A DNA stretch of 24,000 nucleotides from Hydrogenimonas sp. (lineage in GTDB: Bacteria > Campylobacterota > Campylobacteria > Campylobacterales > Hydrogenimonadaceae), in NCBI GenBank assembly GCA_003945285.1, contig AP019005.1, positions 2,035,747-2,059,746 of the forward strand, given 5' to 3'. A program made the translations under genes and the position numbers. A model generated the notes under the pieces. It was given only the letters and a program-made list of their open reading frames with translations, was not told where the DNA came from and searched no databases. How positions within the stretch are numbered: the stretch's first letter is position 1; the number at the start of each line of letters is the position of its first letter. Positions 13,110 to 13,986 of this stretch are shown here, in pieces.

Positions 13110-13223
13110 TTATCCTTGTCTCTGTTTATGTTTTGGGTTTACACAGATAACGCGAACAATGCCTTTTCTCTTGATGATCTTGCATTTGTCGCACATCTTC
13201 TTGACCGACGGTCTAACTTTCAT
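13110..13223 (-). CDS. rpmJ: 50S ribosomal protein L36 (not in the supplied ORF track because it is under 60 aa)
   Basis: Hand translation of the minus strand from the ATG at 13223 gives [37 protein letters not shown]. That is 37 aa with the CxxC...C...H zinc-ribbon pattern. AAGGAG sits 6 nt upstream (spacer TTTTAG). The TAA stop lies 2 nt before the rpsM ATG. Confidence 0.93.
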
Positions 13224-13225
13224 CT

Positions 13226-13236
13226 AAAACTCCTTC
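13226..13236 (-). repeat. proximal copy of the 11-nt direct repeat GAAGGAGTTTT (minus-strand reading), which is the functional rpmJ Shine-Dalgarno
   Basis: Plus-strand aaaactccttc at 13226-13236 is identical to 13709-13719. Confidence 0.8.
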
Positions 13237-13422
13237 TATGCCGTTTTCCGGACTGAATCCGAAAAACCACGATGACTCTGCGTCCGACCAGACAACAGGC
13301 CCGCCGTAAAATACGGCTTTGCCGAGTCGCTGTACAACTGCTCAGACACACCTGAATAACTCTCACACCGTTCGCGACAACACTCTGATCCGGTCGTTCA
13401 CCGGGAGCTCAAGTGCCTACAA

Positions 13423-13435
13423 ACCGCACTCAAGC
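13423..13435 (-). repeat. copy 2 of the exact 13-nt repeat GCTTGAGTGCGGT (minus-strand reading)
   Basis: Plus-strand accgcactcaagc at 13423-13435 is identical to 13519-13531, offset 96 nt. It forms the 5' arm of the 10-bp hairpin at 13407-13435. Confidence 0.8.
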
Positions 13436-13518
13436 CCGCCTTGCCGGTTCACATGCCTCTATCCGGACCTCTCCGGACAGTGCAGGAGTCAATATGCCGG
13501 TGGTTATTGCAGAGCAAT

Positions 13519-13531
13519 ACCGCACTCAAGC
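13519..13531 (-). repeat. copy 1 of the exact 13-nt repeat GCTTGAGTGCGGT (minus-strand reading)
   Basis: Plus-strand accgcactcaagc at 13519-13531. AGTGCGG can pair with CCTGCACT about 40 nt downstream on the RNA (7 bp including one G-U), enclosing the 13505-13519 hairpin. Confidence 0.8.
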
Positions 13532-13708
13532 TTGTCGCTATAAGAGACAAAAACAGACTGCTTGTTGCAGACCGCCAACTGCCCGCTTCCTTCAAAGAAG
13601 CACTCTCTGTTTTGCACCGAACGATTCCAAAAGAGTCGGAATCCCCCTGAATTTAGGTTTGGCGAGTTACGGCCAAACCGACCCTTGCATAAACAGTGCG
13701 ATTTATGC

Positions 13709-13719
13709 AAAACTCCTTC
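13709..13719 (-). repeat. distal copy of the 11-nt direct repeat GAAGGAGTTTT (an orphan SD-like sequence)
   Basis: Plus-strand aaaactccttc at 13709-13719. No start codon at a proper distance follows it on the minus strand; there is only a TTG 2 nt after the GGAG. Confidence 0.8.
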
Positions 13720-13742
13720 ACATAGATGGAAAAGGGGATGGA

Positions 13743-13748
13743 ATTATA
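13743..13748 (-). promoter_or_regulatory. putative internal -10 box (perfect TATAAT) just downstream of infA
   Basis: Minus strand reads TAA GCTGTAAGTTGGCTTAATATATAATTCC. TATAAT lies at plus coordinates 13743-13748, 20 nt after the infA stop, in an AT-rich context. No spaced -35 box. Confidence 0.3.
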
Positions 13749-13767
13749 TATTAAGCCAACTTACAGC

Positions 13768-13986
13768 TTACTTATACCTGTAGGTTATCCGTCCCTTGTC
13801 CAGGCTGTAGGGAGTCAGTTCGACTTTTACCCTGTCACCGGGAAGTATTCTTATGTAGTGCATACGCATCTTTCCGGCTATATGGCACAAAACCACATGT
13901 CCGTTTTCAAGCTCCACACGAAACATAGCGTTAGGAAGCGCCTCTATAACCTTGCCGTCTATCTCAATAACATCATCTTTTGCCAT
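13768..13986 (-). CDS. infA: translation initiation factor IF-1
   Basis: 72 aa. [72 protein letters not shown] is canonical IF-1. AAGGAGG upstream. Confidence 0.97.

Follow-up and report, generated by a model that had tools for sequence, protein, structure and literature searches.

In the Hydrogenimonas sp. genome (GenBank assembly GCA_003945285.1, contig AP019005.1), we analysed a stretch of 24,000 nucleotides (nt), positions 2,035,747 to 2,059,746 of the forward strand, which we will call the window. It carries a ribosomal protein cluster that is interrupted by a 544-nt spacer between infA and rpmJ. This spacer is a sense-strand, non-coding, structured RNA region without a family in Rfam 15, and the 5' ~125 nt of the leader within it are a pseudoknotted RNA motif conserved across Campylobacterota. 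Here, we will refer to this motif as module A. In every sampled genome that has the module, it sits in the 5' untranslated region (5'UTR), on the sense strand, ahead of rpmJ-rpsM-rpsK-rpsD-rpoA-rplQ. We lean modestly toward a reading in which the 544-nt spacer is a long mRNA leader and module A is a ribosomal-protein operator that controls its own operon.

Methionine aminopeptidase assigns the window to Hydrogenimonas (phylum Campylobacterota), and the window's S13 carries a Hydrogenimonas sp. annotation. Related loci were collected from contigs with an identical InfA, 80 GTDB genomes, a metagenome scan, contigs with an identical L36, and S13 variants. A 19-mer, CCATCCCCTTTTCCATCTA, was rejected as a locus finder in the metagenome scan, 11 of its 19 matches lying in unrelated flanks without infA, L36 or S13. 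Alignment A1 holds 27 Campylobacterota sequences aligned with MAFFT, and a covariance model (R1) was built on the hairpins P1 and P2. The architecture shared across genera runs from a -10 box through a pyrimidine-rich stretch and an invariant GAAG to P1 (13-15 bp, with CAC in its loop), the adjacent P2 (8 bp, beginning GG and ending CC), and a strand complementary to the P1 loop. The invariant unpaired nucleotides are the GAAG before P1, the UC in the P2 loop, and the CAC in the P1 loop. In the window, the spacer and module A comprise the following, where MFE denotes the minimum free energy structure:

13224-13767, minus strand: infA-rpmJ spacer, 544 nt, the 5' leader of rpmJ-rpsM-rpsK-rpsD-rpoA-rplQ, defined by open reading frame (ORF) coordinates
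13606-13750, minus strand: module A (P0, P1, P2, P3 and the pseudoknot strand); R1 111.7 bits, E = 7e-18
13733-13739, minus strand: P0 5' strand AUCCCCU, pairing with GGGGGAU at 13641-13647; in the MFE, mean probability 0.57
13641-13647, minus strand: P0 3' strand GGGGGAU, the partner of AUCCCCU at 13733-13739
13680-13715, minus strand: P1 hairpin, 14 bp plus one bulge, whose loop CGCACU holds the pseudoknot 5' strand
13656-13679, minus strand: P2 hairpin, 8 bp, with covariation in A1
13623-13643, minus strand: P3 hairpin GAUUCC-GACUCUUUU-GGAAUC, between P2 and the pseudoknot strand
13694-13699, minus strand: pseudoknot 5' strand GCACUG, in the P1 loop
13614-13619, minus strand: pseudoknot 3' strand CGGUGC, complementary to the P1 loop

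An earlier first-pass annotation of the window had pointed to two perfect stems with 8-nt loops. These are P1 and P2 of the conserved motif; the pseudoknot on the P1 loop had been missed.

Covariation supports each part of the core. Across the 27 sequences of A1, P1, P2 and the pseudoknot together are 91% paired, compared with 35-48% in slid controls, a level that 0 of 500 shuffles reached, and 22 of 30 pairs have changed on both sides. Both-side changes affect 12 of the 15 pairs in P1 (93.6% of cells paired) and 6 of the 8 in P2 (92% of cells paired). At pseudoknot columns 56-147, the pair is GC in 14 sequences, CG in 11, AU in 1 and UA in 1, and is unpaired in none. The pseudoknot 3' strand reads AGUGG, AGUGCC, AGUGAA or GGUGUUAA in relatives, with matching loops CCACU, GGCAC, UUCACU and UUAACACC, and at one locus (L038) the helix is extended to 8 bp with other letters. 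The remaining helices have a narrower range: P0 is clear in Hydrogenimonas and a Sulfurospirillum-like group, not in Nitratiruptor-like genomes, and is individually significant in 6 of the 27 sequences; P3, whose arms covary, occurs in most Hydrogenimonas-family sequences; L016, L104, L101, L115 and every other genus lack it. The first 96 spacer nt of the window are 100% identical to those of the L001 group, a sign of selection on module A given flanking genes that are only 83-86% identical, and beyond ~nt 160 identity falls to ~55%.

Module A is present in Hydrogenimonas, Nitratiruptor-like and Sulfurospirillum-like genomes, and R1 also matches the infA-rpmJ spacer of Campylobacter jejuni (52.8 bits, E = 3e-8). 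In Arcobacter butzleri, where rpmJ follows an unrelated gene away from infA, there is a weak match (21.3 bits, E = 3e-4) at the expected position upstream of rpmJ, and R1 has no match downstream of infA in ~50 Arcobacter and Sulfurimonas loci without rpmJ there. Since it is present before rpmJ and absent after an rpmJ-less infA, module A travels with rpmJ; the same two results led us to reject it as a 3' element of infA. The infA-rpmJ spacer of enterohepatic Helicobacter (86 nt) gave no R1 match; at these loci (L139:1720-1805, also L137 and L138) the infA-rpmJ-rpsM order and a TAGAAT box are kept, and module A is missing.

The spacer itself is always long in Hydrogenimonas (273-693 nt). Nitratiruptor-like, Sulfurospirillum-like and other genomes have 153-288 nt, apart from a few that reach 382-412 nt. 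The identical L36 protein occurs in 10 related contigs with spacers of 274-611 nt each.

The promoter is conserved alongside the motif. In 23 of the 27 aligned relatives a TAnnAT hexamer occupies spacer nt 20-25 or 24-29; in the others it lies further downstream. In C. jejuni, differential RNA sequencing (dRNA-seq) assigned rpmJ (Cj1591) a primary transcription start site (TSS) with a 132-nt 5'UTR (PMC3656092, supplementary file 10). The TAGAAT box aligned to the TATAAT of the window precedes this TSS by 7 nt. Transferred onto the aligned -10 box, the C. jejuni TSS would place the start of the window leader near 13736-13739 and give a leader of ~510 nt:

13743-13748, minus strand: -10 box TATAAT, at spacer nt 20-25
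13736-13739, minus strand: predicted TSS, ~7 nt past the -10 box, transferred from C. jejuni dRNA-seq
13230-13235, minus strand: rpmJ Shine-Dalgarno AAGGAG, 6 nt before the ATG at 13223
13110-13223, minus strand: rpmJ ORF (L36, 37 aa), the first gene of the presumed regulated operon

The position of the pseudoknot relative to the Shine-Dalgarno bears on what module A may do. In 12 of the 27 aligned sequences, 5-14 nt separate the two, and because the knot lies this close to the ribosome-binding site in these short-spacer genomes, a ribosomal-protein translational operator would be, by analogy with known leaders, its most likely function. In Escherichia coli, S4 represses the alpha operon by way of a pseudoknotted leader in which the 30S subunit is trapped, and the S15 (rpsO) leader is likewise a pseudoknotted 5'UTR operator that traps this subunit (PMC3616713). 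Because of the analogy with the alpha operon, we propose S4 as the likeliest candidate ligand of module A. Candidate S4 leaders also precede rpsM in Clostridia and Fusobacteriales, their ligand assigned from prior cases (Eckert & Weinberg 2020, PMC7247131).

Like the E. coli alpha leader (RF00140), module A has a narrow taxonomic range, precedes genes for S13, S11, S4, RpoA and L17, and joins a hairpin loop to a downstream strand, and its knot adjoins the ribosome-binding site in 12 of the 27 Campylobacterota sequences. It nevertheless has no sequence or covariance-model similarity to that leader, and its operon begins with rpmJ rather than rpsM. Whereas the E. coli element takes in the Shine-Dalgarno together with the start codon and the first part of the coding sequence, module A ends upstream of the Shine-Dalgarno, by 378 nt in the window, and adds P2, P0 and P3. 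The Clostridia and Fusobacteriales leaders were, like module A, defined computationally upstream of rpsM-rpsK-rpsD-rpoA-rplQ, but they belong to other phyla, have other folds, and their Rfam models do not match; nor was a GUAA or an rRNA-mimic element identified in module A, although no search aimed at rRNA mimicry was made. How the element works in the short-spacer relatives may plausibly be modelled on the E. coli rpsO leader, although its operon and protein differ and its pseudoknot overlaps the start region. Module A thus appears to resemble the alpha (S4) and rpsO (S15) operators without belonging to either family.

The first-pass annotation had found no signature of a known RNA in the spacer, and database searches agree. 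Running cmscan with all 4227 Rfam 15 families, at the gathering score and at E <= 10, matched no family in the window or nine related loci; across the window, these relatives, C. jejuni and a Sulfurimonadaceae contig (L061), there was only noise (STnc630, RsaE and microRNAs). Alpha_RBS (RF00140) gave no match in the window at either setting, nor did the other Rfam S4 leaders (Bacteroidia, Clostridia, Flavobacteria, Fusobacteriales, Firmicutes) in the window and the nine related loci. At the C. jejuni rpmJ/rpsM junction (L120:2458-2520), Alpha_RBS has a sub-threshold match of 12.7 bits against a gathering score of 38, off the motif, which probably reflects rpsM coding-sequence similarity. Fu et al. 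2013 reportedly warn of matches that arise in this way. Module A is unmatched in Rfam 15 in Hydrogenimonas, Nitratiruptor-like and Sulfurospirillum-like genomes and in C. jejuni.

To our knowledge, few phyla have described ribosomal-protein leaders. In the searchable library, we found no published rpmJ, S4 or alpha leader for Campylobacter or Epsilonproteobacteria beyond the TSS table; module A would fill this gap in a phylum that includes C. jejuni, whose genetics and mapped TSS make the motif a route to ribosomal-protein balance in Campylobacterota.

The operator reading can be laid out as follows. Transcription of the minus-strand leader would start at the promoter just past infA, with transcripts reading through from the spc operon as a probable second source. 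In some lineages P0 would pair the 5' end of the transcript, and the H-type pseudoknot would tie the P1 loop to the 3' strand. An operon-encoded ribosomal protein, once present above free rRNA, would bind the folded pseudoknot and block or trap the 30S subunit at rpmJ. As the first-pass annotation had remarked, the location of the spacer is the one expected for a feedback leader of the L36/S13/S11/S4 operon. Inserts between the pseudoknot and the Shine-Dalgarno have arisen in Hydrogenimonas (378 nt in the window) and, separately, in a few further lineages, and the 3' unit grows through tandem duplication. Feedback in the window, if retained, would have to act via elongation or stability of the leader, or via the 3' unit.

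Several observations weigh against this reading. The window pseudoknot is 378 nt from the Shine-Dalgarno, so simple occlusion cannot apply there, and the inserts do not fold in such a way that the two come together. S13, S11, L36 and L17 share the operon, so S4 is not the sole possible ligand, and rpsD has its own TSS in C. jejuni. Within the C. jejuni alpha operon, further primary TSSs lie before rpsD (50-nt UTR) and before rplQ (213-nt UTR) (PMC3656092, supplementary file 10), which allows S4 and L17 to be produced without the rpmJ leader. P0 is not universal, a terminator-shaped hairpin follows the pseudoknot in many relatives, and enterohepatic Helicobacter has the operon without module A, which is therefore dispensable. 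The Hydrogenimonas leader is a natural experiment: some genera have the putative operator within 5-14 nt of the ribosome site, others have it 120-380 nt away, and the intervening RNA changes by tandem duplication between close strains, which offers a direct test of the operator's working distance.

Folding of the whole spacer locates structure beyond module A. The minus strand has an MFE of -210.1 kcal/mol (z = -4.6), compared with -155.4 kcal/mol (z = -3.4) for the plus strand; over the whole spacer it carries 161 G and 113 C; and the conserved P1 pairs are frequently U-G, which on the opposite strand would be A-C. These three features confirm the sense-strand bias that the first-pass annotation had proposed. 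Its tally of 39 G and 25 C over 13401-13500 was right for C, while the G actually number 36. The local helices that it drew all exist as written, with partition-function pairing probabilities of 0.95 for 13685-13710 (P1), 0.98 for 13656-13679 (P2), 0.99 for 13459-13480, and 0.95 for 13405-13437, the last reaching 12 bp. Its 7-bp long-range pairing (13374-13380 with 13532-13538) has a probability of ~0.16 and lies outside the MFE, and the 150-nt domain that this pairing was to close is without support.

The excess structure sits at both spacer ends, and the middle ~300 nt alone have z = -2.0 (mononucleotide shuffles). Conservation likewise is confined to ~145 nt at the 5' end (13606-13750) and ~100 nt at the 3' end (13224-13323), not spread over the single large structured RNA first envisaged; the idea of an undescribed structured leader was right for both ends, and the central hairpins on which it laid emphasis are strain-specific. 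A separate pairing in the MFE joins AAUUCC at 13740-13745 to GGAGUU of the rpmJ Shine-Dalgarno at 13228-13233 (probability 0.83). The 3' end of the -10 box falls within this AAUUCC, which lies ahead of the predicted TSS and would occur only in read-through transcripts from infA.

The site between the pseudoknot and the Shine-Dalgarno has been expanded independently in several lineages, to 26-65, 105-127 and 229-255 nt. The last range comes from two Sulfurospirillum-annotated loci (L042 and L048, spacers of 412 and 382 nt), whose AT-rich insert is unrelated to those of Hydrogenimonas and represents an independent expansion at this site. The Hydrogenimonas expansion has up to three components, namely a terminator-shaped hairpin, a hypervariable hairpin string and a conserved 3' unit. 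Such a lineage-specific leader expansion is unusual, and its significance is uncertain. In the window, the hairpin string is the variable middle:

13324-13613, minus strand: variable middle, a string of local hairpins, helices from the MFE
13585-13601, 13545-13584, 13459-13480, 13405-13437 and 13390-13404, minus strand: hairpins of the variable middle, from the MFE

These ~290 nt are ~55% identical, and essentially unalignable, among strains whose S13 is 98% and whose flanking genes are 83-86% identical, and among the related loci the window middle has no homologues apart from the identical copies L002 and L010. The hairpin string is G-rich on the sense strand in all 19 variants and only moderately more stable than shuffled sequence, with z ranging from -0.3 to -6.5 overall. 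A 35-nt similarity to the 5' half of the 3' unit occurs at spacer nt 336-370 (score 31 compared with 19.4 +/- 3.1, reached by 1 of 300 shuffles), where the hairpin at 13405-13437 resembles hairpin 1 of that unit. That the middle may consist of decayed tandem copies of the 3' unit is a weak conjecture: the similarity covers only 35 nt, and a hidden Markov model, covariance model R2 (below) and Tandem Repeats Finder (TRF) gave no more copies, TRF detecting no tandem repeat in the window spacer. We rejected inserts as closed domains that join the pseudoknot to the Shine-Dalgarno, as shortest paths through the MFE graph in 18 variants were not shorter than in shuffled inserts and were frequently longer.

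At the opposite end of the leader is the 3' unit, which we defined with an iterated nhmmer profile and a covariance model (R2); alignment A2 of the unit holds 25 sequences:

13224-13323, minus strand: 3' unit, consisting of H1, GGGCC, a degenerate H2, GACGCAGAGUCAUCG, Hb and the Shine-Dalgarno; R2 67.2 bits, E = 1e-21; nhmmer E = 9e-11
13303-13317, minus strand: H1 hairpin of the 3' unit
13243-13267, minus strand: 11-bp hairpin Hb, whose end lies 8 nt upstream of the Shine-Dalgarno; pairing probability 0.98

The general order is H1, G(G/A)GCC, H2, a small hairpin (GAC-GCAGA-GUC or AAC-UCAGC-GUU), CGUAG, the 11-bp Hb, and CGUAUnAAGGAG. In A2, the fold is 91.3% paired compared with 35-44% in slid controls, 9 of the 11 Hb pairs have changed on both sides, and the rpmJ Shine-Dalgarno keeps an invariant GGA, with the full AAGGAG at least 90% conserved. 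The unit exists in two paralogous versions, at times together in one spacer, and builds perfect tandem arrays, of a 97-nt unit (3.1 copies) and, in L013, of a 113-nt unit (at least 2.1 copies). The 97-nt unit is present in one copy in L001, two in L006 and L012, and three in L009 and L096, and copy number differs between strains that share an L36 sequence and have InfA 100% or 97% identical. Arrays lie at L009:2140-2435, L013:4227-4466 and L130:1-229; contigs L013 and L130 end or begin inside one, and 3'-unit arrays appear to break metagenome assemblies at the infA-rpmJ locus. For the role of the unit, the possibilities are a stabiliser of the 5' end after processing, a second protein site (Hb could serve as either), or a locally duplicating repeat.

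The last of these raises an alternative in which the middle and 3' unit are extragenic elements at a permissive site, akin to repetitive extragenic palindromes and bacterial interspersed mosaic elements (REP/BIME) or to miniature inverted-repeat transposable elements (MITEs), and only module A is functional. We regard this as unlikely. Like BIME/REP repeats, the 3' unit is a ~97-113-nt hairpin-rich module whose identical copies form tandem arrays of strain-variable number; the middle is hypervariable among near-identical strains, and the insertion site has been expanded independently in other genera. A reversed copy moreover occurs in another context, on a Sulfurimonadaceae metagenome-assembled genome contig (L061:1922-2018, minus strand, R2 77.5 bits), where related Sulfurimonas contigs have only ~27-45 nt after infA and no 3' unit. 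This full unit, on the strand opposite infA, comes directly past the infA stop, with a bidirectional terminator hairpin after it; the contig, which lacks rpmJ there, ends nearby. Tracing this context through InfA, we did not find the exact protein in the collection searched, and the closest matches were Sulfurimonas contigs. With the exception of L061, no copy outside infA-rpmJ spacers was found in the 24-kb window or in ~130 loci (mostly the same packed ribosomal region). Unlike BIME/REP repeats, the unit is thus seen at one locus and in sense orientation, L061 excepted. Wherever a Hydrogenimonas-family spacer is complete at the side of rpmJ, the final copy keeps the same register and has the rpmJ Shine-Dalgarno as its 3' end. 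Hb pairing survives nine doubly changed pairs, and this therefore points to selection on the fold rather than recent copying.

A bolder extension of the operator reading, to which we give similarly low weight, would combine both ends of the leader. Module A would be the missing alpha-operon operator of Campylobacterota, uncoupled from the ribosome-binding site in Hydrogenimonas, and the 3' unit an autonomous mobile RNA module. If so, the 3' unit would be a signal for protein binding or processing, would duplicate in tandem and, as in L061, would be able to move, and the leader would be a natural case of a modular, expanding cis-regulatory RNA rather than a fixed operator.

The terminator-shaped hairpins suggest another possibility, namely that module A, at least in Hydrogenimonas, is a separate small RNA (sRNA). 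A transcript of ~130-190 nt, driven by the promoter past infA, would end at a hairpin and U-run after the pseudoknot strand, the stable RNA would act in trans or titrate a protein, and rpmJ would be expressed through read-through. An A-tract, GC stem and U-tract do directly follow the pseudoknot strand in many relatives (L014, L015, L017, L108, L112, L113, L117), where the terminator scanner misses them because the U-run is absorbed into the stem. Module A is also distant from the Shine-Dalgarno in Hydrogenimonas, and its 5' end is paired in P0. Yet in the 12 of 27 aligned sequences with a short gap the module abuts the rpmJ Shine-Dalgarno without a terminator, and the C. jejuni TSS is annotated as the primary TSS of rpmJ. 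A second promoter before rpmJ is not evident, and in the window an intrinsic terminator after the pseudoknot was rejected as not convincing (z = -0.96; the terminator scan of the minus strand was empty). We therefore think an sRNA somewhat less probable still than extragenic repeats.

Just past the terminator-shaped hairpin, some spacers (L014, L015, L092, L108, L113, L117, L118, L119, L024) carry 4-6 repeats of a purine-rich heptad, ~(A/U)GUG(A/G)G(C/U), which is absent from the window. The heptads contain AGUG, as does the pseudoknot 3' strand, and in L015 and L024 a pyrimidine-rich stretch downstream could pair with them as a long imperfect hairpin.

L36 is a zinc-ribbon protein. For this reason we considered zinc among the signals that module A might sense as a riboswitch or as a sensor of a small molecule, ion or temperature. 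A compact junction and pseudoknot with invariant unpaired nucleotides, just upstream of a Shine-Dalgarno, would suit such a sensor. We nonetheless judge it improbable: in every genome sampled, module A is found only before this one ribosomal operon, with no metabolic gene associated, and a range of one phylum is typical of ribosomal leaders (PMC7247131).

Least probable is that the spacer is a decayed protein gene, an insertion sequence (IS) fragment or a small leader-peptide gene: ORFs of 22-113 aa can be drawn in it, and a 22-codon ORF that spans P1 and P2 is kept within Hydrogenimonas, but this ORF has no Shine-Dalgarno, its start codon is missing from 12 of 26 relatives and its length ranges between 4 and 44 codons, the stem substitutions of module A are compensatory rather than synonymous, no ORF overlapping the spacer has a Pfam match above noise, and long inverted terminal repeats were looked for and not found. 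A coding or IS remnant was rejected on this ORF, Pfam, inverted-repeat and start-codon evidence. The first-pass description of the gap as holding only short ORFs is borne out, and a search for tRNA and transfer-messenger RNA (tmRNA) in the spacer found none.

On its upstream side, the spacer is bounded by a gene outside the element:

13768-13986, minus strand: infA ORF (IF-1), the upstream neighbour

By ORF coordinates, the 544-nt gap noted at the outset between infA and rpmJ is real. The tight packing described for the rest of the cluster, with junctions that overlap or span at most 25 bp, was checked from rplQ to rpsH, where the other twelve junctions measured 0-25 nt.

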